Assembly (NCBI GenBank): GCA_000004695.1
Contig: CM000152.2
Location: 4,224,001 to 4,288,000 of the forward strand
Direction: 5' to 3'
Origin: Dictyostelium discoideum
Taxonomy: Eukaryota
DNA: 64,000 nucleotides
This document shows, in pieces, positions 12,950 to 64,000 of the stretch; position 1 is the stretch's first letter; every line of letters starts with the position of its first letter. A program made the position numbers and the translations under genes. The notes under the pieces were generated by a model. It saw only the letters and a list, made by a program, of their open reading frames with translations. It searched no databases and was not told where the DNA came from.

Positions 12950-13984
12950 ATGATTATGAATCAATTGTAAGACTTTTCAACTTTTTTTTTTTTCCTTTAT
13001 CTTCATTATTTTTATTATTATTATCATTATCATTATTATACTAATTTAAATAAACCTATTTATTGTATAATATAATAATAATAATAATTTTATAGTAATT
13101 ATACATGTAATGTTATAAATCAATTTAAAAAGACAGTTTTAAAGACAGAACAAGATTTTATTGGAGCACCAAATGGAATTATCAATGTGAATGAAAATAA
13201 TTTAGATTCTCCAACATTACCAAAGAATTATCATTTACAATCACCAACTAAATTACCTTATAGTGCATATATTGCTAATCATAATAATAATAATTCAAAT
13301 AATAATTCAAATAATACTAATAATTCAAATAATAATAATAATAATAGTTCAAATAATTTTAATATTAATGGAGTATCATCACTTTCACCAATACTATCAC
13401 CAACATCTATAAATAATACAAATTCACCACTATTAACTAGTGTTAATGGAGGAAATACCGGTAGTGGATTATCAGTTAAACTTAATTTATCAAATAATAA
13501 AAAATCAACCATTTATATATTAGTAAACATTGCAATATGCACTATAAGTAATTGTCATGATTCTATCATTATATTAGGACCATGTATTGATTTCATAGAG
13601 TTATCAGATTGTTCAAAATTAACAATCATTTCAATTACAAAATCAATAAGGATAAAGTATGTTTTTAAATGTATATATATATACACACACACACACACAC
13701 TAAAAATAAATTTACTAATTTTATATATTTATTTTTTAGATCATCAAATAATATTTCATTATATATTTGTTGTAATCAAAAACCTATAATAGCTTCAGAT
13801 TGTATTGCTATTAAACTTGCACCATATAATACACATTATCCAAATTTAGAGCAACAATTAATTACATCAAAACTATCAACAACTTTATCAAATAATTGTT
13901 GGAATACACCTATAATTTTAAATTCATTTTCACCTTTAAATTCTCCAAATATTACCAATACCGATACCAACACGAATAATAATA

Positions 13985-14021
<37 letters not shown>

Positions 14022-14077
14022 TAATGGTATTTATTTAACTATACCACCAAAACTACCTTTAGAACCTTTAGATAGTA

Positions 14078-14120
<43 letters not shown>

Positions 14121-14575
14121 TAATGAAGATAATATTGAAAATTGTGATAATGATAATGATAATGAAAATGAAAATGAAATTAAAGATGAAAAAATAATAT
14201 CAAATATTTATTCAATATTAGATGCAGAAGAGTTCTTTCCATTCACTGTACCATTTTTAATTAAAGGTAAAACAAAAAATAATCCTTGCGAATTACCTTT
14301 AAATTATGTAAAATGTTTAGCTTCAAAAACAAATTCTGTTCATTCATTACATAAATTAATTCAACAAACTACAAATGATCCAAAAACAAAAGCAACTTTA
14401 TTACATTTAATTGAATCTAAATTTCAGGTATGTATTTAAAATAAAATAAATAAATAATTGAAATTTTATTAATATTTCTTTTTTTAATTTTTAATTTTTA
14501 TTATTATTATAGGAATGGTTGGTTGAAACTGATAATATAAGGCAAATAAATGATTTAATTAATATGAAAAGATAA
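12950..14575 (+). CDS. TBCC / C-CAP-cofactor-C-like domain protein; proposed exons 12950-12966, 13096-13656, 13740-14427, 14513-14575
   Basis: The ORF-track start at 13187 is GTG and no in-frame ATG lies upstream. A 17-nt first exon ATGATTATGAATCAATT followed by GTAAGA at 12967, with acceptor tatag at 13095, restores the frame. Later introns are GTATGT 13657 to AG 13739, and CAG|GTATGT 14428 to AG 14512. The beta-helix-like repeats IYILVNIAICTISNCHDSIIILGPCIDFIELSDCSKLTII / ISLYICCNQKPIIASDCIAIKLAPYN are typical of the TBCC/RP2 C-CAP domain. Confidence 0.55.
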
Positions 14576-16787: not shown

Positions 16788-16858
16788 GCGTATGTGGTCT
16801 AGTGGTATGATAGCTGCCTTCCAAGCAGTTGAACCGGGTTCGATTCCCGGCATACGCA
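16788..16858 (+). tRNA. tRNA-Gly (anticodon UCC)
   Basis: 71-nt cloverleaf. Acceptor GCGTATG/CATACGC, T-arm CCGGGTTCGATTCCCGG, anticodon loop CTTCCAA. An A-box-like TGGTCTAGTGG and a B-box GGTTCGATTCC are present. Confidence 0.9.
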
Positions 16859-23069: not shown

Positions 23070-23330
23070 TTGCAAGTTATATTTATGTTAACTGGACAAG
23101 AGTCGAACTTATGTTCTTTTTCCGGAAGTTCCGAGAATATTGGTTTGTAGAAAAATATATGCGTATGCCGGGAATCGAACCCGGTTCAACTGCTTGGAAG
23201 GCAGCTATCATACCACTAGACCACATACGCTATGTTGATGAGATTTTGGGGTAAATGCCCGAATAAGTTTTAAAAAAATTATTGATGATTTTGATTGATT
23301 AAATTTTTTTTGGTGATGTAGAAAAATTTT
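23070..23330. repeat. Inverted duplicate of the tRNA-Gly locus unit (tRNA plus ~100 bp upstream and ~60 bp downstream flank), partner at ~16690-16950
   Basis: The upstream flank atcaccaaaaaaaattta...cttattcgggca.ttacc.caaaatctca.caaca and the downstream cggaacttc.ggaa.agaacataagttcgactctt are conserved in both copies in opposite orientation. Confidence 0.75.
23160..23230 (-). tRNA. tRNA-Gly (anticodon UCC), identical to the copy at 16788-16858
   Basis: The reverse complement of 23160-23230 equals the 71-nt tRNA-Gly sequence exactly. A T-run follows on the minus strand. Confidence 0.9.
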
Positions 23331-31794: not shown

Positions 31795-31821
31795 TTAGTT
31801 AAACCAGAATTGATTATTATT

Positions 31822-31858
<37 letters not shown>

Positions 31859-32835
31859 GGTGGTGAAAAGAGGTTGTTATTATTATTATTTCCAAAATTG
31901 TTATTATCATTATTATTATTATTTCCAAAACTATTATTGTTGCTATTGTTGCTCTTATTTCCAAAATCGCTAAAGTCACCAAAACCATCAAAGCTGTTAT
32001 TATTATTTCTATTATTACTATTATTATTATTTTGTTGTTGTTGTTGTTGTGGTGGTTGTTGTGGTTGTTGTGGTGAAGAGTTGAAATTAAATGGGTCATT
32101 TCCAAAAATATTATTATTGTTATTATTATTATTTTGGTGTGGAGAAGAGAAGAAATCATTTTGTTGAGGTGGTTTTTGAATAGTTTTTGAAGAAGCTGGT
32201 GGAGGTGGAGATAAAAGGAAACCACCACCACTTGCACCTGTTAAAACTGGTAAATTCTTTTTATTATTATTGTTATTATTATTTCCAGCTGGTGCTTTTG
32301 AAGTTGGTGCTTTAAATGGAATATGAATTGTTTGACCAGTCTTTAAACTATAATCTTTCTTTGGTTCATTTTCATAATTTCTTCTTTGAATTTCAATATC
32401 TTTTTTATTTTTAATATAACTATAAATAATGAATAAATATTATTAAAAAAAGGGGTTAGTGTTTTGGTTTTCTAGAAAATTGCAATTGGATCATTTTAAT
32501 TGATTTCATTTGATTGCCCTCCCATCCCCCCCACTGAGTGTGTGTGTTTATGATCATAATAAAAATTAAAATGAAATGAAAAATACTTTTGATGATCTTG
32601 TAAAGTTGCATTGAATTCAAAAGCATCATCTCTATCGGTGAAACCCATTCCAACAAATGCATGACGTTCACCATCTTTAATTCTAATTACAAAATAACGA
32701 CTACTATCGACAACTGGTTCAACAGAGTTTTGATCAAATGGGCATTGTGCAAAGATTTCACCATTATTTGGATCTTCAAATCTGATAACACAATTTTCAC
32801 CTCTTGCTACAATAACTAATCTGCCAGTCCCTATA

Positions 32836-32874
<39 letters not shown>

Positions 32875-32960
32875 ATTGTGAGAGTGAGTGATTTTGTGAT
32901 TATATTTATTAAATTATTTGATTTAAAATTAATTTATTAATATTTGAGTTATAGAAAAAA

Positions 32961-37303: not shown

Positions 37304-38400
37304 ATGGAAAATATTACTCTTGATCAATACCTTCAATCAGCAGTTGATGTTGTTAAAGAGATTGGCCCAATGATTTTAAAAAACTATAACAGTCGTTCAA
37401 AACAAATTGAATACAAAGGTGCTATTGATTTAGTTACTGATACTGATAAAGGTAAATTTAAAAAAAAAATTAAAGAAAAAAAAAAAAAAAAATTTTAAAT
37501 GATTGGATAATCTAATTTATAAATATTCTTTTCTCTTTCTCTCTATTTGTTTGTTTGTTTTATTTATTTATTTATTTATTTATTTTAAATTTAAATTTAA
37601 TTTTTAGCTGTTGAAGAACATATTATTAAAACATTGACAACTAAATATCCACATACAAAGATTTTAGGAGAAGAATCAACTAAAGATGGAATTTACAATT
37701 GGGGTAATGAACCAACATGGGTAATTGATCCAATTGATGGTACAACCAATTTCGTTCATAGATTCCCATTATTTTGTGTTTCAATTGCATTATCAATAAA
37801 CAAAGAAATTGTTGTTGCTTGTTTATATGCACCAGTATTGGATGAATTATTCACAGCAACTAAAGGTGGTGGTGCCTTTTTAAATGGTGAATCAATTTCA
37901 GTTTCATCTGTTGAACATCTTTCACAATCAATCATTTCAACAAATGTTGGTTATGATAGATCCGATAAAGGTATTGAATTTATGTTAACGTAAGTATAAA
38001 AATAATAATAATAATTAAAAATTGGGAAAAAAAAAAAAAAGTGTGTGAATTTGAATTGTTAATATTAATAATGATTGAAAAAAAAAATAAAAAAAATAAA
38101 AAAAATAAAAGTAATTTCAAAAATATTTTAAAGGATAATGTTCAAGCATTAAGATTCTCAGGTACAGCAGCATGGGAAATGGCAAGTGTATCATGTGGTA
38201 GAGTTGATAGTTTCTATGAATGGGGTATTCATCCATGGGATATTGCTGCTGCCTCTTTATTAATTACAGAAGCTGGCGGTGTTGTTGTTGACCCATCAGG
38301 TGGTAAATGTGATATGGAATCTAGAAAAGTTTTATGTGGTAATCCAAATATTGTTAATAAATTATCAAAATTATTAATTGAAAAACCAACTTCTAATTAA
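37304..38400 (+). CDS. Inositol monophosphatase (IMPase); exons 37304-37451, 37608-37989, 38112-38400
   Basis: Motifs ILGEE, WVIDPIDGTTNFVH and WDIAAASLLITEAGG. Donors GTAAAT at 37452 and GTAAGT at 37990; acceptors ttttag at 37607 and aaaag at 38111. Aligns with human IMPA1 through ...GTAAVNMCLV.... Confidence 0.85.
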
Positions 38401-42052: not shown

Positions 42053-42690
42053 ATCTAGATATTTATAAATTTATTATTATTTAGTTTATTATGTTTGATA
42101 TTGTATTATTATTTTATTTATTATCTAATTTAATTTTAGTTTTTTAAAATCTTTATATTTTTTTTTTTCACTTTTTTATTTTATTTTTATTTTGTAAATG
42201 AACTCAATGAATTTTTTAATTTAATTATAAAAAAAATTATTTGAAAAAAAAAAAAAAAATAAAAAAAAAAAAAAAAAATTGTTTTTTTTTTTTTTCAAAC
42301 AAAATATGCATTATTTTTATTTTTTTTATTTTTTTTTTTTTATTTATTTTCTTTTATTTTATTTTTATATTTCCTTTTTTTTTTACCAAAATAAGAATGA
42401 TAAATGTTTTTTTATTAAACCAATTTAAATTGGCATTTTTTTATTTTAAATGAACAATCTCCATTACAAAAAATAAAATAAATTATCAAAAAAATAATTA
42501 ACCTTCAGTATTCGTCCATCGGTTAAGTTTTATCAATTTTGTCTTATTTATAAAAAATAGAGTTTTTTTTGAATTGGGTACCGAATGGATGAGATCTTAG
42601 GTCACACAGATTTAACCAAACTTTCCTACCCTTGCTTTAAATTATAAAAAATAATTTTAATGTAATATTAAATTTGAAAATATCAAAAAT

Positions 42691-42763
42691 GCCCGGCTAG
42701 CTCAGTCGGTAGAGCGCCAGACTCTTAATCTGGTGGTCGGGGGTTCGAGCCCCCCGTTGGGCG
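42691..42763 (+). tRNA. tRNA-Lys (anticodon CUU)
   Basis: 73-nt cloverleaf with anticodon loop CTCTTAA and T-arm GGGGGTTCGAGCCCCCC, followed by a T-run. Confidence 0.9.
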
Positions 42764-42766
42764 AAT

Positions 42767-44061: not shown

Positions 44062-44092
44062 TGTGATCTATCTTATACTAAATCTAAAATTT

Positions 44093-44165
44093 CGCCCAAA
44101 GGGGGGCTCGAACCCCCGACCACAAGGTTAAAAGCCTTGCGCTCTACCGACTGAGCTATCTGGGC
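44093..44165 (-). tRNA. tRNA-Lys (anticodon UUU)
   Basis: The reverse complement gives gcccagatagctcagtcggtagagcgcaaggcttttaaccttgtggtcgggggttcgagcccccctttgggcg, with anticodon loop CTTTTAA. Confidence 0.9.
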
Positions 44166-44212
44166 ATTTTTGGAAATTTCGAAATTAAAAACAACTACAG
44201 AACGATTTTTTA

Positions 44213-45062
44213 AGCCTGGAAGTTGTTGCACCACCCAAGAGAGCGAATAACTCTCAAACTAAACCAAGTCAAACCCAAATACGAAAACAAACAAAAATTA
44301 AAAGTAATCTATAGAAACATGATGGATATCAAATACAAGGGATGGAACAAACACCAGCCAACAACAGGTCAAAAACTGATTCAAAAGAACATTAATCACC
44401 CAATTCTACCATTTAGAGAAGCCAGATCAATCACAACTATCAAAGGAAGAGACTTAGCGTGGAGATATCTACTCAAGGCACTTCCAAAACACCATGGGGA
44501 GAATTGTCACTCATGTAAAGAAGAAGAGTCGTCTATGCACATCTTCTTCGAATGCAAATCAATAAAACAGAATATCGACTCAATCTATCAAAAGGTCTGT
44601 AAAGACTCCAACAACACTTACCACGGTCCATGGAGCGAAAAAGTTCTCGGAAAACTACTCACACCATTCTCATCAAATCTGATAGGAGCCATTATGGAAT
44701 CGATATGGTACAGAAGAAATCAAATAAAATTCAACGATAACACTACAATAATAACAGAGAACCAAATAATTCATAAAATCAAAAAAGCGAGAGATGCCGA
44801 ATGGGATAGAACAAGAAAGATAGTAGAAAAGCAACTACGTCAAGAACTAAGATGCACTGATAACCGAGAGTCAATCAATCGGACCGCATCAATAAAAAGA
44901 AGACTCGAAAAATTCAGCCACAACTGGAACTCGAAACTCATGACCATAAACATCCCGGAACACTTCATACCATACTGCTCATATAACACCAACTCATAAA
45001 AAAAAAAAAAAAAAAAATTATAACAATAATAATAATAATAATAATATAATAATAATAATAAT

Positions 45063-45599: not shown

Positions 45600-46314
45600 T
45601 TTAATAAGTTAGGAGTTGAACCTGTGATCTATCTTATTTTTTTTTTGATATAAATAAACTATTGTAGTATACAATTAGTATGTTATTTTTATTTATTTAT
45701 TTTAGGTTTTTTAGTTTTTGTGAATTTAAAATAGTATGTTATTTTAGATTAGGTAATTAATAATTAATTGGTGGTGTAATTGTTGGAATTGGTTCATTAG
45801 TGTTTATGCTCCATTCTTTTTTAAATTTTTTGATGGTTTCGGACCATTGGGTTTCTTTTTGAGTTTTTGTGAGGTTGTTTTTAATTGAGTATTGGTTAAA
45901 GTTCTTGAATATTCCAATCTTATTAGCTTGTGCCATTTTGATTTTAATATATCATAATCTAGTGTTGTGTTGTTTATTTGGTTGTTCTAATTATCAATTG
46001 ATTGAGTTATATTGATGTCAAATAATGATTTGCATAACCATATCCATATTTGGTGAATAACTAATGAGATTATGTTCCAATATGCATGTGTTCTGACTAG
46101 ATCAAGATTTGTGTTTATATAATTCCAGTTGAACCTGTATTTTTTATATTGTGCGTTTTCTGCAAAATGAAAATTAATATTGATAGTTGGATCTGGTTTA
46201 AATGCTTTGTTGTTTGTTTGTGGTTTATAGATGAGTGTGTATAATTTTGTTGTTTGGTTTTTTGTTAGTGACCAGTTTTTGATAGTGATCTATCTTATAC
46301 TAAATTTAAAATTT
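45600..46314 (-). mobile_element. Degenerate retroelement-like sequence plus a duplicated tRNA-Lys(UUU) 3' flank; includes an orphan ex-B-box copy (45613-45623) not attached to a tRNA
   Basis: gttgaacctgtgatctatcttat at 45613 and gtgatctatcttatactaaatttaaaatttcgccc at 46280 copy the flank at 44057-44095. No ORF longer than 60 aa. Confidence 0.3.
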
Positions 46315-46387
46315 CGCCCAAAGGGGGGCTCGAACCCCCGACCACAAGGTTAAAAGCCTTGCGCTCTACCGACTGAGCTATCTGGGC
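46315..46387 (-). tRNA. tRNA-Lys (anticodon UUU), second identical copy
   Basis: Identical 73-nt sequence to 44093-44165. Confidence 0.9.
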
Positions 46388-46636
46388 ATATTTGAAAATT
46401 TTAATTTTTTTACAAAATCACATTGATTTTTAATGACAATCGAAAATTTAAAATTTTAAATAAAAATAAAACAAAAGCAATAGAAATCTTTTTTTTTTTA
46501 AAAACAATTCTATCAAGATTTGAATTGAAATTGATTGAGGTATTAACTTCATTCTAAACCTAAAAAAAAAACTTTTTTTTAAATTTTTTTTTTTTTTTAT
46601 TTTTCTATTTTTTTTTAGAAAACACATCGCACCACC

Positions 46637-47083
46637 ATGGACAAGTTATTTTTTTTTGTTTTTAGAAATAGTTTCATAAGGAGAAGAATATTTTATTATC
46701 TTCGATTTATAAACTGTCATTATTATAAAAGATATTTTTTAAAAAATGATATTTCAAATTTAGTAAGTTACCCATATATTAATGAAATTAATAGTTTAGA
46801 GATTTCATTCCAAACAGTTGAAGATGAAAATATATTCAATGCTTTGAACCTTTGCAATTTAAAAAAATTAAAAATCAACTCAACTTCATTTCAAAACTCT
46901 AGTATATTTCAATCACTTAATTCCCTCACAATTGTTCATCCAATAAATGAAAATATCTTAAAACAAAATTTTCTAATTCAATTTCAAAATTTAAAGAAAA
47001 TAAAATTTCACCCTTCATTTAACCAAATTTTAAAACAACAATCAAAAAACAACAATAACAATAATAATAATAACAATAATCCA

Positions 47084-47133
<50 letters not shown>

Positions 47134-48730
47134 TAATAATAATAATAATAAAAATAATAGTTATTATATTGAAATACCAAATTCAATAACTAGTATTCAA
47201 TTTTATGAATTTTCAATATCATTAGAATCATTAATAGGATTACCACCAAATTTAACAAAGTTAATAATTAAAAAAACAAAAGATTATTTAGATAGCCAAT
47301 ACTTTTATGAAAGTAAAATTAAAACTCTAGAACTAGGTGGTGAATTTAATAGTGAAATAAAGAAATTCTATTTACCAAAAGATTTGGTAAATTTAAAATT
47401 GAGTGATTCATTTAATCAACCCATTTCAAATGATTCATTACCAAGTTCATTAAAAACTTTAGAGATTGGTGATTTATTTAATCAAAAAATTAAAAAATTA
47501 CCAAATGGATTGGAATCATTAATATTGGGAAATTCATTTAATCAAACATTTCAAATTGGATCATTACCAGAGAGTTTAAAAGAATTGGTACTTAGTCCAT
47601 TTTATAATAAACCAATTAAAACTGAACTTTTTAACAATTTGAAATCATTAATTAAATTAACATTTAGTTCACCAACTCATACAAAAGGTTCAATTCTTAG
47701 TAGTGGTGGTGGTGGCGGTAGTGGTGGTAGTGGTGGTGGTAGTGGTACATTTAATTATCCTCCAAATTTAGAAGAACTTTATTTTTCAAATACTGATGAC
47801 AATTTAAGTGAAGGTAGTTTAAGATCATTCTTCTTTCCAAATAAAATTAATAATTTACCACCAATTGAAACTTGTAATACTTTGAAAAAGATATCACTTT
47901 GTTTATTAAGAACTTATTCACCAATTCCAAAATCAGTTAAAGTATTAGCACTATATGAACTAAGTTTTAAAATGTTTAATAAAAACCTTGGTTTACCACC
48001 GAGTCAAAAGGAGAAAATTAAATTCGATATACCAAAACATATTGAAACTTTAATCTTTCTATCATTAAATTTTCAAATTCATAGTGATAGTTTAAGAATT
48101 TCAAACCTTTGTTATCTAGAATTTGGTAGTTTTTTTAATTGTCCACTTCCAGAATCTGAATATTCTTATCCTCCATCACTAACTTCAATCATTTTACCAT
48201 GGGATTATAGTTGTAAAATCAATTATTTACCAAAGAATTTAAAAGAATTTTATTTCAGTAAAGATCCAATACCATTGAAACAATCATTAAGAATTGAATA
48301 TGCCTCTTCTTCGTCATCTCAAATTTCCTATAGGTATTCATTTGAAAATATTTTACCCCCATCATTACAAGTTTTATATTTACCATGGTTTCATAAATTT
48401 TCAATTGAATCAAATCAATTACCACAATCAATTACTAAATTAAGAATTTCTTCAAATTTTCAAAATCAAACAATTACTTTTAATAATTTACCAACAAATA
48501 TTAAATCATTAATTATTACTGGTAATCCAACAATTATTAATTTACCATCAACTTTAAATTCTTTAATAATTTATAATTCAAATTCAAATTTTATAAATCA
48601 ATTATTTAATCAATCATTTCAAAATGAAAATGAAAATGAAAATGAAAATAATTTAACAACAATTGGTAATAGTCTTTTATTAAATAATATTTTAGAAATT
48701 CATTCAGATGAAACTATAATTTTAAAATAA
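46637..48730 (+). CDS. FNIP-repeat-containing protein (Dictyostelium-specific repeat family)
   Basis: Repeated LP(N/S/E)SLK.L.(I/L)G..FNQ.I units and a gly/ser-rich insert, with the typical N-terminal FRNSFIRRRIFYYLRF leader. Single ORF. Confidence 0.8.
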
Positions 48731-48790
48731 AAATAATTATTATTAAATAAAATAAAATAAAAAAAATAATAAAACTATTAAATATTTATT

Positions 48791-53032
<4,242 letters not shown>

Positions 53033-55236: not shown

Positions 55237-56707
55237 TATTGATTATTAATTTTAAAAAAAATAGTTAAATGTAATTCATTTAATTTTATTAATTTGTATA
55301 TTTATTAGATCATTATTAGTAATAATTGATCCATCATCACCAAATAATTCAATATTACATATTGATACAGAATCATGGTTAATTTATATTTATACTATAT
55401 CATATTATGTAGTTGGTGAGATTATACCGGGAATGTTGTTGATAGTGATTGAATTTCTATTACCATATCATAAAAGAAAAGATTTTATAAATATTGGTGG
55501 AGAATTATCAAGTTATCAAGATGTTTGGAAATCAGAGAATATTGCAATTCATGAATTGCTAGGAATGGGTGGTAGTGGTGCTATGGTGCATAAATGTACC
55601 GTAAAGAAAGGTCCATTACGTGGTGGTACTTTTGCAGTGAAAGTAATGAAAGATTGTACAAATGAAGATATTGAATCGTTAGAGAATGAAATTAGAGTCT
55701 ATGAAAAACTAAAGTCACCCTATATCGTCTCCTATCAAGGTTCAAGTAAAGTCGTTGGTTCAAGTGGTCAAATCTTTGAGATTCGACTATTCATGGAATA
55801 CATCCCACATACATTAGATAAATATCTATTAGCAAGGTCAGTTTGTGGTGATTCAAATGGTGGTGGTTCAAGTAGAAATTTAAAAAATTATTTTTTACAC
55901 ATGCAAGAATATCAATCTTCACCACAATCTTCAATTTCATATTATCAGAATAATAATAATAATAATAACAATTCACCATTAATACAACCACAACAACAAC
56001 AACAATATGTCTATCCATATTATTTTAGATATAGTCAAGTTGTTTGGTATTTATATCAAATTTCAATTGGTTTGGATAATTTACATGCAAATAAAATTGC
56101 TCATAGAGATTTAAAATCAAATAATATTTTTGTAACTTTATCAGAGAGTGAAGTTAAAATTTGTAAAATTGGTGATTTCGATATCTCTAGATCTTTTAAT
56201 AATCCAAAAGTTTTAAATGTTTTATCAAATCCAACAGCTTTACAACAACAAAAATTAAATAATTTCTTTCAATCAGCAACAACAACAACAACAACAGAAC
56301 AAACAACAGAGCCAATAGAGGTAGCAGCAACAACAACACCTCAAACAATTCATTCAGCATTTCAACATGATATTTTATCTTTTGGTTTTATTGTTTTAGA
56401 CTTTTTAACTTTATCAAACTATAGTTGTTTTGACTCAAAATTTGATACTTCAAACTACTATGATGATGATAAATTCAATAATAAATCAAATACAAAAATT
56501 AAAAAACCAGATTTACCAGATTATATAAAAAAAGATGAAAAACTTTGGGAACCTGTCATTCAACTTTATAAAAGTTGTACATCTGATGATCCAAATAAAC
56601 GACCTTCTTCACTTGGTGTTAAATTTCATTTAGCCAATCTTTATAAAGATATTATAGAGTCTGGCACTGAAGTTTGGTCAATTGAAAAAGATTCTTCAAG
56701 TAAATGA
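54355..56707 (+). CDS. Seven-transmembrane domain fused to a C-terminal Ser/Thr protein-kinase-like domain; exons 54355-54632, 54778-55171, 55265-56707
   Basis: Seven predicted hydrophobic helices in exons 1-3. Kinase motifs are LGMGGSGAMVHKC, FAVKVMK, IAHRDLKSNNIFV and KIGDFDISRS (DFD instead of DFG), with an N/T-rich insert in the activation segment. Introns are GTAAGA 54633 to tttag 54777, and GTAAGT 55172 to aaatag 55264 (this acceptor was chosen for phase consistency). Confidence 0.7.
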
Positions 56708-58029: not shown

Positions 58030-59583
58030 ATGGATAAAAATAATAATAATAATAATAGTAATGGGGGACATGAAAATTTATTTAAAGATCTTCAAAATCA
58101 AAAAAGAGTTCAAAATCCATCATTTAGTTCTGGTCAAAGTAGAACAGTGCCATCAATTTCTGCTCGTGGCGTGGCACCAATTAGCTCATCATCAAGTTCA
58201 TCATCTATTTCAACAACTAATAACACTACTACTACTACTACAAGTGGTACTGGTAGTACATCATCACCAGTATCAAAAGGTGTACCATTAATACCAATTG
58301 GTGCATCAAGATTTAAACAACAACCATCAACAGATGTTTGGAGATCAGCAAGAGGACAACAATTATCAGAATCACTTTGGTCGTCTTTTAAACAAGCATT
58401 GCAAAATTCTCAAAATTCTCAACAATCTTTATCACAATCTTTATCACAATCTCATTCAACAAATAGTGAGGTATGTATAAATATATATATATTTTTTAAA
58501 ATAATTTTAATTTTTACTAATTATTTTTATTAATTATTTTTTTTTTTTTTTTTTTAGATTAATAATATTTTATTGGAGTTTGTAAAACATTATAATTCAG
58601 AATATGATAAATGGAATGTTGAAATGGGAGTTGATTATGCTAATACAAAAGTATATGGAATTAAATTATATTGTACACCAGTATTAGATATCCAAACCAC
58701 ATTATATTTGACTAGACAACTTTGTTCTTATGTTTTAAATTTATCAAAGGCATTAACTGATGATAATTTGGATATACCAGATGGTTTACATTTCATATGT
58801 TTAATAAACATTTTATCAAGATCACCATTGAATTCAACATTATTACATCAAGAGAATGCATTGGCACATCCATTTCAAGCAGCACGTCTTGCATCTTATA
58901 AACTCTCTTCTTTTAGAGACAAAAATAATCCATCCTTTACAAAATGGTGGCCATACCTTAAAGTTTTATTAGCTAATTGTTGTCAAATTGCTACAAATTT
59001 CGTACATGATAAACAAAATTTATCTTTTAATTCTTTAAGGTATGGCAATGTAAATAATAATAATAATAGTAATAATAATAATAATATTGTAAATAGTACC
59101 AGTTTAAGTAGTGGTAGTTTACTTTCAAATGGTGGTGGTATTAGTACTAGTGAACCAGAGATTTCACCATCAACATCACCATTAACAGGTACAACTCCAA
59201 CATCACCATCAAGTTCTTGGTCATCATCTTCAATAACTAATCATCAAATTCAACATCAAATTTTAATGCAACAACAACAACAACAACAAGCTCAACAACA
59301 ACATACTCAACAATACTTTAATACGATTGGACAAAGTAGTAGTTATTCCTATACAAACGTTATCAATGGTGTTTCAACCAATAATAGTACAATAACAGCA
59401 ACAACTACAAGTAATTTCTTAATTCAACATATATTTAAACTTGGTACAATTTCAATTTTGATGGATTCTTTACAATTCTTTAATGATTTCTTTAAAACTC
59501 TTCAACCAAAAGATTCAGAAGATTCATTTAGATTATTGATTATTGATACATTAGGTATTTTAATTAGTGGTAATGGTGGTTTG

Positions 59584-59625
<42 letters not shown>

Positions 59626-60540
59626 GCAACATCAACAAATACAACACCAAATACAATAATTAATAATACAACAATAAATAACAGCGGTTTAACAAATAGT
59701 ATTAATAATAATAATGGTGGTAATAATAATTTAAATAAACTTAAAGAACCAGGTAACGAAATTAAAACAATTATAAATTGTATTGGTATGAAAGCGTATA
59801 TTAAAACAAGTAAAAAAGTAACATCATTACAAAACGAATTTCAATTTCAATTACATGTTATTAGGGTGATTAAAGAATTGATTTCAAATAATTTAAATAA
59901 TGCAAAATATTTTAATTCTCATAGAGGTTTTGAAAAAATTCAAGAGGTTATATTATGGGTAACTCAATGTTTTAAACCAACAGATTCACATACATTCACT
60001 GATGAAAGTTGTTTAGATTTTGATACTTCAATGCCTGCTCAAGAATTATCTGCCTTATTAATTGGTGCAACTTCTTCAAATTCTTCTAATAATCTACCAA
60101 ATTTAACAAATTCAATATCATCACCCTCACACTCATCCTCCTCCTCCTCCTCAACAACAACAAATATTAATAATAGTAATAATAATACAGCAACAGCAAC
60201 AACAACAACAAGTAATGTAATAATTCCACCAACAATGTATGATAGTTTAAATTCAGTTTTAAATTCATTAAAATATACGACTTATTCAGAGAAATCATCA
60301 TCACTTATAAAATCACCACCAATTATTGTTAAAAGAAGTAAAGTTGTACAACTTTCACAATTGTTTCAAGTTTTACATTCATTTTCTTTTACACTTGTAC
60401 CATTTTCAAAAATTCAAACTAATTCCTCCTCTTCTTCTGGTAATTTAAATTACAATATATATTCCTCCTCTTCAGCATCATTTATAAATAATAATAATAA
60501 TAATAATAACTGTAATATATCATCACCAACAAATCAATCT

Positions 60541-60616
<76 letters not shown>

Positions 60617-60858
60617 TTTTACCAAGATCAAATTCATCTTATTCAATATTTAGAAGAGGTGATAGTTTAAATACAATCATTGATATCAATCAAGATAATA
60701 ATAATAGTAATAGTAATAGTAATAATAGTAGTACACTTGATATTTTAAATAATAGTCAAGATACAATTGTAGATAATAATAATGGTAGTAATATTGATTT
60801 TGAAGCAACAATAACTACTAATACAACAACGGTCGTGACAGCAACCGTTAATTTAACA

Positions 60859-60895
<37 letters not shown>

Positions 60896-62338
60896 TGATT
60901 GATGGTAATACCGAAGTAACTGGTGGATCAGCACATAATAGTTGGTCAAGTTATACAAATATAAATGAACAATTTCAACAATTATCATTAACATCATCAA
61001 CGACAGCAACAGGATCATCACCAACATCACCAACAGCATTTCAATATCAATCAAAACCAATTGATAAAATGTTTGTGAATACATTATTAATTGAAACAAT
61101 TTTTGAAAAATTATTTTCACAATTAAATCTTAGTGCTTTAAATGAAAATCATTCAACAACTTCTTCTTTACCAATTAGTCAAAATTTAAGTGATGATTCC
61201 TCAAATACAAATACAAATAATAATAATACATCATTTGGTAAAATTTATATTTCAGATAATTTACAACAAAATCCAAACACTGATAAATCATTATCATGTG
61301 GTAAAATTTTTAATAAGATTAAAAATTCAACACCAGAACTTCAATTACAAATAATTGAATATTTAATTAAATTAGTAATAGAGAATCCATATTGTTTACC
61401 AATTCTTAGAAGATTTAATCTTTGGGAATTAATATTTTCTGATAATTTTTATTATTCATCACCACAAGCAACTTTAAATGATGATGATATTGAATATTTA
61501 TTAAATTCAACCACCACTACCACCACCTCATCATCAACTAATATTTCAGAAGAACAATTAAAGAAACGTAAATTATATTTATTTAATGGATTAAGATTAG
61601 GTTGTTTAGGTTTAATTCAATTCTTTTCAACATTTAATAATAGAGATAATTTTGAAGAGATTTGTATAATTTTAACAGAGATGAGAAAATCATTATTAAA
61701 ATCACCAGCATCAGTGATTGAGTTATGTCAATTATTAATTAATATCACTAAATCAAATCCTCAAGGTACAATTCAATCATTGATTAAATTAAGAATTTTC
61801 CAACAAATTCCACAAATGATTCAAGTCCTATTCAAATATGAACAGGCTAGTAACTCTCAATTTGGTTTATTACATAAGAAAGCTAGAAATATCATTTTCT
61901 CTTATCTAGGCCAATTGATAGTTCACGAAGAATTATCTTATCATGCAGTTGTTGAAAAAGAATTGATAGATGTTTTATTTTTATTATTAAGAAAAGTTGA
62001 AACTAAAACTTTTTCAATTACTCAAATATTTTTCTTAATGAAATTAAATGTTTCATCTTCTTCACCATCAGTTACAACTTTATTATCTTCTTCTTCACAA
62101 GTATTAAATTCATATCAACAACAACAACAACAACCACAACAACAATCATCACAACCACAACAACAATCATCACAACCACAACAAATTCCACAATCCCAAC
62201 TACAACAACAAAATCAAACACAGTCATTACAATCATCATCATTATCATCAACATCATTATTATTAACATCACAACATCAACAACCATCAACATCATTATT
62301 ATCAACATCACAGTTTTCATCATCATCATCCTTATTGC

Positions 62339-62421
<83 letters not shown>

Positions 62422-62441
62422 CCACAACTACTACAACAAAC

Positions 62442-62484
<43 letters not shown>

Positions 62485-63035
62485 GTTCAAACTCCATCAT
62501 CACCTCAAACATTAGCATCATTATTAGGAAATTCAAGTTCAAATACATTAACATCATCATCATCAACATTATCATTAAATGAATCATCAACATTATCAAG
62601 ATTACCAACATCAAATAATTTATCAGAATTATATAGGACATATATTTCCGAGTTATCAATGATTAAAGAAGAGACATCATGTACTTATGATTTTAAATTT
62701 GATTAATTTTATCAATGTTGGATGGTATTAGACAAATTATTAAAAACAATCCAAAGAAACAAAATCTATTTAAAAAGTTTCGTGTTTTCATTAAAATCGT
62801 TAACTTGGTTAATGCTGATGATAAAAAAGAACGTTTGTCAGTTTTATGTCATTCAGTATTACGTACTGTAATTTTATTAATGGCAAATAATCCAAAAATT
62901 AAAAAACATTTTCGTAATCATATTGGTTATGATACAATTAAAGATTTAATTATTAAATCTGAAGGTATTGTTTCTGAAACAACAATGAATATTTTATTTG
63001 ATATGGTAATTATTTTTAATTTAATAATGATAATC

Positions 63036-63124
<89 letters not shown>

Positions 63125-63147
63125 TTGAAATAATATTAATATTAATA

Positions 63148-63187
<40 letters not shown>

Positions 63188-64000
63188 TTGTTGATGGTGA
63201 ATTTGATATTGAATATAAATATGTTATTCAAAATCCAGATTCATGTTTATTAATATTTAATTTATTAAAATATTTCCCAACTAAATTACAACATGAAATA
63301 TTGGATAGATTTACAGTGATGGTAGAGAAATGTACAACTAATCAATCAGTTTGTTGTAATTGTCATTTAATTTATAATTTATTAGAGGCAATTTATAAGG
63401 GTCAACCAATGGAAGTTACAACAAAGATATTGAAATTAATTGAAAGATTAGGTATTCATAGTGTTACAGTTAGAGAATTAAAGAAATTATTTGGTTTATT
63501 AAAGAGTGAACAAGGTGATTATCTTCCTCCAACAACATCGGCTCTATTGACAACATTACAAAATATATCAAATTCACGTAATCCAGGACCACAGGTTTAT
63601 TTCGATTTCGATGGAAAAGATAGTTGTATCATATTGCCAACATTTGATAAATGGCCATTTCCAAAGGGTTTTTCATTTTGTACTTGGGTTAGAATTGAAT
63701 CATTTGTTGATCCAACCGGTACACCAGAGTATAAACCAAGATTATTTAGTTTCCTCTCTGATAGTGGTTGTGGTATTGAGGTGTTGTTCATTTATCAACA
63801 ACTTCAAGTATTGACAGTGAATAATCACCAAAGTAAAGCCGTATTTCAATCACCACCTACCTTTGTCGAAAGGGAATGGTATTTCGTATCGGTGGTTTAT
63901 TCAATTAATTTAATCTCTTCTAATGAGATTAGAATTTATATTAATGGTCAACAGTCAGCGAAATCATCCATTAAATTGAATATATCAGGTACACTTTGGA
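58030..64000 (+). CDS. BEACH-family (neurobeachin/LvsA-like) protein, N-terminal ARM-like region plus ConA-like lectin domain; 3' end beyond the window; exons 58030-58470, 58559-62706(?), 62715(?)-63005, 63187->64000
   Basis: The ConA-like domain [36 protein letters not shown] is typical of LRBA/NBEA/Lvs proteins. Intron 1 is GTATGT 58471 to tttag 58558. Intron 3 is GTAATT 63006 to tttag 63186. The frames of 58573-62706 and 62715-63005 differ by one, with a TAA at 62704 and no plausible intron. Confidence 0.65.
62338..62484 (+). repeat. (CAA)n microsatellite coding ~45 Gln in the BEACH-family gene
   Basis: Near-perfect CAA array. An (ATA)n array at 63038-63123 lies in the following intron. 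Confidence 0.9.

Follow-up and report, generated by a model that had tools for sequence, protein, structure and literature searches.

A frame break in a giant LvsA-like BEACH-family gene of Dictyostelium, probably caused by one nucleotide missing from the deposited sequence

Gene model and reading frames

The window, meaning the whole stretch of 64,000 nucleotides that was analysed, carries hallmarks of D. discoideum-type DNA: its GC content is about 22%, and it contains poly-N/Q tracts as well as an FNIP-repeat gene. From 58030 to beyond 64000 the sequence is read as one gene, predicted to encode a very large BEACH-family protein of the LvsA/neurobeachin-like type. The parts of the gene model are as follows.

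58030..58470, + strand: exon 1 of the BEACH (LvsA-like) gene, ATG at 58030, 147 codons
58471..58557, + strand: intron 1, canonical GTATGT...TTTTAG, 87 nt, 4.6% GC
58558..62703, + strand: upstream part of exon 2, frame 1, 1382 codons, with long low-complexity tracts
62700..62707, + strand: frameshift site (tGATTAAt), to which all stop-free repairs map (enumeration)
62704..62706, + strand: premature TAA due to the frame error, read from the sequence
62703..63005, + strand: downstream part of exon 2, frame 0, ending ...LFDM, placed by a Pfam PF20425 match and homologue alignment
63006..63186, + strand: intron 2, canonical GTAATT...TTTTTAG, 181 nt, 2.8% GC
63187..64000, + strand: exon 3, last part of the alpha-solenoid, then the first part of the ConA-like domain (Laminin_G_3), continuing past the window end

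For comparison with homologues, a repaired model was assembled from exon 1, the upstream frame of exon 2 (ORF1), the codons LILS and the downstream exons. Residues 83-299 of this model, encoded by exon 1 and the next exon, were paired by blastp with residues 47-257 of the orthologous protein of Acytostelium subglobosum, and the upstream part of exon 2 gave collinear HSPs with the N-terminal 1030 residues of that protein. Within this part of exon 2, residues 925-1165 matched many BEACH proteins over the N-terminal half of their alpha-solenoid (HMMER search). ORF1 contains very long tracts of poly-Q (CAA)n, poly-N and poly-T/S at 62100-62480, 60500-60620 and 59550-59620, with a CAA/poly-Q run around 62330-62480. 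Intron 2 returns the reading from frame 0 to frame 1. Nearly all of it (63006-63186) is taken up by two elements, an (ATA)n/(TAA)n microsatellite that extends over about 85 nt and, after it, about 35 nt of T run. The length of this intron probably differs between strains, and its assembly is probably difficult.

The window letters at 62698-62711 are tttgattaatttta. A preliminary description of this DNA had reported a 1377-codon frame ending at TAA 62704-62706, a new frame 8 nt further on, and an overlap of a single base between the two. The position of the stop was confirmed from the sequence, as was the overlap, base 62703 being the only one that sense frames 1 and 0 have in common. The figure of 1377 is correct as the length of the listed ORF (58573..62706, 1377 aa from a TTG); the frame is actually open from the 3' splice site at 58558, which gives 1382 codons. 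The distance of 8 nt holds for the ATG of frame 0 at 62715, counted from the TAA, though that frame, after stops at 62688, 62694 and 62700 (TGA), is open already from 62703 (L-I-L-S). Codon-usage log-odds, for which the window's own long ORFs and genes served as the training set, were strongly positive in frame 1 as far as about 62670 and turned positive in frame 0 at about 62707. Past the TAA, frame 1 remains open for another 54 codons (62707-62868). Because this continuation scored 12.7 bits on the homologue profile described below and had negative coding potential, it was regarded as a chance opening and not as an alternative C-terminus.

Five tRNA genes were found elsewhere in the window, at 16788-16858, 23160-23230, 42690-42764, 44092-44166 and 46314-46388 (two Gly-TCC, one Lys-CTT and two Lys-TTT). 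An ORF of 258 aa without a Pfam match (44223-44999) starts about 57 nt from the tRNA-Lys gene at 44092-44166 and might be the remnant of a tRNA-targeted retroelement. Two convergent single-exon genes, 46637-48730 (+) and 48791-53032 (-), lie 66 nt apart; one of them, judging by its sequence, presumably encodes an FNIP-repeat protein-like product, and the product of the other is rich in poly-N, has 1413 aa and contains a B-box-like Cys/His-rich motif. The 66 nt between them (48728-48793, 1.5% GC) form the tightest intergenic gap in the window and serve as a calibrator for the size and AT-richness of a true intergenic gap in this DNA. An inositol monophosphatase gene (PF00459) at 37601-38397 (+) contains an intron with a canonical GTAAGT at 37991, and a DUF1681-family gene at 31798-32933 (-) is likewise split by an intron; both had the appearance of frame breaks at first, and ordinary splicing accounts for them.

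Homology across the junction

The non-repetitive C-terminal part of ORF1, joined to the downstream ORFs, was used as the query in a HMMER search of 1.84 billion representatives. The search returned 560 matches, nearly all to large proteins, and many of these ran over both ORFs in one unbroken stretch, among them P0002 (3183 aa) at query positions 3-662, P0005 at 2-662, P0006 at 3-663, P0019 at 4-660 and P0048 at 4-662. The junction was crossed by 30 alignments, about 22 of them with E below 1e-8, and at least 20 long BEACH proteins of other eukaryotes, including the A. subglobosum orthologue, read straight through it. The proposal of the preliminary description that a frameshift or premature stop divides one BEACH-family gene is borne out by these unbroken alignments.

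Twenty homologues from diverse eukaryotes have a conserved helix motif at the junction, F-x-L-[LI]-L-x-[LM]-L-x-G-[IV]-R. The motif is cut by the frame break, with FD in the upstream frame and the rest, from LILSM, in the downstream frame. The Met of ATG 62715 occupies a conserved internal hydrophobic position in the homologue alignment, and ATG 62715 is not taken as a start site.

A Pfam comparison of the downstream ORFs identified PF20425 (Neurobeachin alpha-solenoid) with E 1e-36 over profile positions 196-421 of 423. The match begins at residue 2 of the downstream ORF and only at profile position 196 of 423, so that about half of the domain must be encoded upstream. Pfam recognised no domain in ORF1 alone, the upstream half of the solenoid being seen through homologues; PF20425 spans the junction uninterrupted in P0001 and P0002. 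A Laminin_G_3 (ConA-like) match follows PF20425 (E 2e-10) and lies after intron 63006-63186, in agreement with the ConA-like domain previously placed further downstream. A solenoid region thus precedes the ConA-like domain, as expected for a BEACH protein, and the gene is assigned to the BEACH family by orthology, the BEACH domain itself being predicted to lie beyond the window. The BEACH (PF02138) and PH-like (PF14844) domains are expected about 4-6 kb past the window end at 64000, and the C-terminal WD40 region likewise lies outside.

Other searches gave no match in their respective collections. A protein homologue search with the junction region found nothing at 1e-10 in an index apparently without dictyostelid proteins. 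A contig search with the 137-aa downstream ORF and the ORFs at 55433-56704 and 46637-48727 found no encoding contig, an exact-pattern scan for the junction with a variable gap matched none of the metagenome and prokaryote genome contigs, and phmmer of the downstream part against PDB sequences was also negative.

With Pfam PF20425, the score of 129 bits rose to 134.8 bits when the ORF1 tail was added and to 132.1-133.5 bits with shuffled tails. Because Pfam could not separate the true ORF1 tail from shuffled tails, a profile of closer homologues was built as an HMM from 20 homologues only, with the window sequence left out. Scores of the junction models on this homologue HMM were as follows.

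One base added (FD-LILSM): 116.2 bits
Two bases removed: 108.3 bits
Shuffled upstream tails (controls): 100.5-104.8 bits
Start at ATG 62715: 96.8 bits
80-nt intron 62652-62731: 86.4 bits
161-nt intron: 50.5 bits
Staying in frame 1: 12.7 bits

Every single-base insertion and every two-base deletion between 62690 and 62715 was then enumerated. Stop-free repairs were obtained by adding one base after 62700-62705 or by removing two bases within 62700-62707, and none was found elsewhere in 62690-62715. The best repairs were an extra A (GAA TTA, FELILSM; 116.4 bits) and an extra T (GAT TTA, FDLILSM; 116.2 bits). One added base, changing GAT TAA to GAT TTA A or GAA TTA A, gives a homologue match free of gaps, and the candidate corrected readings are ...TTTGATTTAATTTTATC... 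or ...TTTGAATTAATTTTATC.... At the level of sequence, homology establishes both the single-gene reading and the exact site of the break.

The best match, P0001, is a hypothetical protein of Acytostelium subglobosum LB1 (XP_012759282.1 / GAM17220.1, 3333 aa). Comparison of the repaired model with this protein by blastp gave six collinear HSPs over model residues 83-1900. The HSP pairing residues 1502-1900 with 1007-1410 crosses the junction at 1529|1530 with 63% identity (E 4e-146), and the letters of P0001 around the junction are ...LDEIFNVYIGHMAKIKEDASP--DGGFE|ITLALLDGIRQVIKANPKKQQLF. P0001 was accordingly treated as the orthologue of the window gene, given its 63% identity over the junction and an intron 1 position common to both; the A. 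subglobosum intron equivalent to window intron 1 (58471-58557) is annotated at residue 105. Its architecture comprises the Neurobeachin solenoid, Laminin_G_3, DUF4704, DUF4800, PH_BEACH, Beach and WD40 (NBCH_WD40). It differs from the window gene in that its reading frame is continuous at the equivalent point, inside a 6.6-kb exon, which is the outcome of the comparison with dictyostelid orthologues that had been proposed as a check.

Two extra introns, at residues 467 and 1021, are present in the A. subglobosum gene and absent from the window gene, which is about 500 residues longer N-terminally, almost entirely through low-complexity insertions. A canonical A. subglobosum intron of about 85 nt (GTATGT...AACAG, HMAK|IKED; DF837573.1, L001:4198-4282) lies 13 codons upstream of the equivalent of the frameshift, its window counterpart being at about 62661/62662. 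The residues flanking this position are present and in one frame in the window, where the intron is absent. As read from the two sequences, these differences show intron loss or gain within the gene between dictyostelid groups.

In all likelihood the window gene is lvsA of D. discoideum or a direct orthologue of it. The D. discoideum protein LvsA (large volume sphere A) was reportedly described by Kwak et al. in 1999 as a protein of about 3600 aa. Like the product predicted here, LvsA is a giant dictyostelid BEACH protein with an N-terminal solenoid and a ConA-like domain; it was reportedly published as one polypeptide, and no such single chain can be read from the window as written. PF20425 directly precedes the ConA-like/Laminin_G_3 domain in the metazoan proteins NBEAL1/NBEAL2 and NBEA/LRBA, as it does in the window gene. 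NBEA and LRBA begin near the start of the downstream ORF of the window, and NBEAL-type and protist homologues have a longer N-terminal solenoid. The window gene combines this long-form solenoid with about 900 further N-terminal residues.

Origin of the frame break

Exon 2 would be a single continuous reading frame from which one nucleotide is missing at 62700-62705. In the simplest case the missing base would be a T (GAT TTA to GAT TAA) or an A (GAA TTA to GAT TAA), and its loss would put a TAA in the upstream frame and move the remainder of the gene to the -1 frame. The preliminary description had offered a sequencing indel or a strain-specific mutation among its options, and both survive. 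The missing base is probably an error of the deposited sequence or its assembly and not of the organism, and on priors we infer that an origin in the deposit is the most likely one. This is favoured because the gene is otherwise undamaged: beyond the break, coding potential is still strong, the splice sites are canonical and identity to the orthologue is 63%. It is favoured, too, because N-terminal solenoid and BEACH part occur fused in eukaryotes generally. It is also favoured because one indel error in 64 kb at 22% GC would be likelier than a fresh disabling mutation in a given gene. Further weight comes from the reported need for LvsA and from the reported localisation and partner binding of its N-terminal GFP fusion (PMC3315810, PMC7079120). 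LvsA is reported to be required for contractile-vacuole function and discharge, and its loss causes strong contractile-vacuole and cytokinesis defects (PMC3315810); the N-terminal GFP fusion is reported to localise to the vacuole and to pull down partners (PMC3315810; PMC7079120).

Several observations count against an error. No long homopolymer surrounds the missing base; with the base restored, the run would be of 3 for T or 2 for A, and so short a run is not a classic context for homopolymer miscalls. Other intron-less frame breaks were sought in the window as a gauge of the error rate, and none was found among the pairs examined (13088-14436, 37601-38397 and 32933-31798, the last on the minus strand), which were normal introns or opposite-strand artefacts; the other same-strand frame changes examined in the window were all canonical introns. 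That the window otherwise looks accurate is also compatible with a real mutation, and the ATG 8 nt after the stop makes a downstream product at least conceivable.

A genuine 1-bp deletion in the sequenced strain, that is, a mutation of the LvsA-like gene that would be recent, private and either disabling or partly tolerated, is unlikely, though it merits serious consideration. Such a deletion would leave an N-terminal fragment of 1529 residues, with BEACH-containing product scarce or absent. It is present in the sequence as given, at a site without a long homopolymer, and with no other indel-like frame break in the window the assembly is not obviously noisy. Against it stand the lack of secondary decay downstream, the conservation throughout eukaryotes of a family in which N-terminal solenoid and BEACH part are fused, the strong contractile-vacuole and cytokinesis defects that follow loss of LvsA (PMC3315810), and the prior expectation that, for any one gene, a new frameshift arises less often than an indel from base calling or assembly. 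That the deletion is real and a working LvsA is still made, as two polypeptides or by unconventional recoding at GAT-TAA, is distinctly improbable.

An arrangement of two separate genes, or a gene fission, with a 1529-aa solenoid protein ending at TAA 62706 and an NBEA/LRBA-like BEACH protein starting from ATG 62715, is very improbable. The ATG 8 nt past the stop, the Pfam match starting at profile position 196, and the start of NBEA/LRBA-type proteins roughly at the start of the downstream ORF are in keeping with this arrangement. There is, however, no AT-rich spacer or promoter between the two frames; the 8-nt spacer lies in a stretch of 23% GC, and intergenic DNA here has 10% or less. By composition, the junction region (23%) is coding-like, compared with 3-5% in the real introns and 10% in the upstream intergenic DNA. 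The context of ATG 62715 is poor, with T at -3 and no A-rich leader, and its Met aligns with the conserved internal hydrophobic residue noted above. Inclusion of the LILS codons before the ATG and of the upstream tail adds 19 bits of homology, and orthologues carry both halves in one polypeptide and in one Pfam domain. Two independent adjacent genes were therefore rejected, the homologues not being separate proteins and an AT-rich spacer being absent; the preliminary description had already judged two genes 8 bp apart to be improbable, and the position of the break, inside a conserved helix and inside one Pfam domain, agrees with that judgement.

Still more improbable is a spliceosomal intron at 62652-62731 (+, 80 nt, GT..AG) that would link the two frames and leave the gene intact as written. 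The earlier statement that no GT...AG pair can bridge the frames does not hold literally, there being 13 in-phase stop-free pairs that do so, 62652-62731 among them, and it stands in substance, none of the pairs being credible as an intron. The pair at 62652-62731 is the only short one that reopens the frame, with a length of 2 mod 3 and no in-frame stop, and in the A. subglobosum orthologue an intron precedes the equivalent point by just 13 codons. The residues flanking that intron position are nevertheless present and in frame in the window. The proposed intron has 23.8% GC, against 2.8-4.6% in the verified introns 63006-63186 and 58471-58557; its donor is GTTATC, where the real introns of the window have donors of the GTA(A/T)GT type, namely GTATGT, GTAATT and GTAAGT; and its acceptor context, GGATGGTATTAG, has no T-rich tract before the AG. 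Its removal would take out 28 codons, including the conserved LLDGIR helix, and would lower the homologue HMM score to 86.4 from 116.2 bits and the Pfam score to 125.4 bits, below both the 134.8 bits reached with the ORF1 tail and the 129 bits reached before the tail was added. As a dictyostelid intron, 62652-62731 was rejected for its donor, its want of a T/A-rich tract, its insufficient AT-richness and the damage to the protein.

Programmed recoding (-1 ribosomal frameshifting, hopping or transcriptional slippage) that yields the full-length protein has a negligible probability: its sole attraction is that a -1 shift at exactly GAT|T gives the homologous protein, and against this the codons GAT TTT AAA TTT GAT TAA contain no in-frame slippery heptamer of the form X XXY YYZ, any shift is confined by the frame-0 stops at 62688, 62694 and 62700 to GAT/TAA, where re-pairing in the -1 frame is impossible, polymerase slippage would lack a long homopolymer, and the orthologue needs no recoding. 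The segment 62690-62810 has a minimum free energy of -10.5 kcal/mol (z = +1.32; 188 of 200 shuffles fold at least as well), and a programmed -1 frameshift site was rejected, the slippery heptamer and a stable downstream stem-loop or pseudoknot both being absent.

Meaning for annotation and for LvsA biology

The junction holds no new biology. The value of the result lies mainly in annotation, since gene callers would split the locus in two or introduce a spurious intron of 80 nt at the cost of a conserved helix. The locus is properly modelled as one gene, corrected by 1 nt at 62700-62705. Were two polypeptides or recoding to prove true, the locus would represent a natural split of a giant BEACH protein in the middle of its alpha-solenoid; in the two-polypeptide form, a 1529-residue solenoid would be accompanied by a BEACH part reinitiated at ATG 62715, with an NBEA/LRBA-like N-terminus. 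A real deletion would make the sequenced strain a natural hypomorph or null for LvsA, which would matter for studies of cytokinesis or of the contractile vacuole that use the strain.
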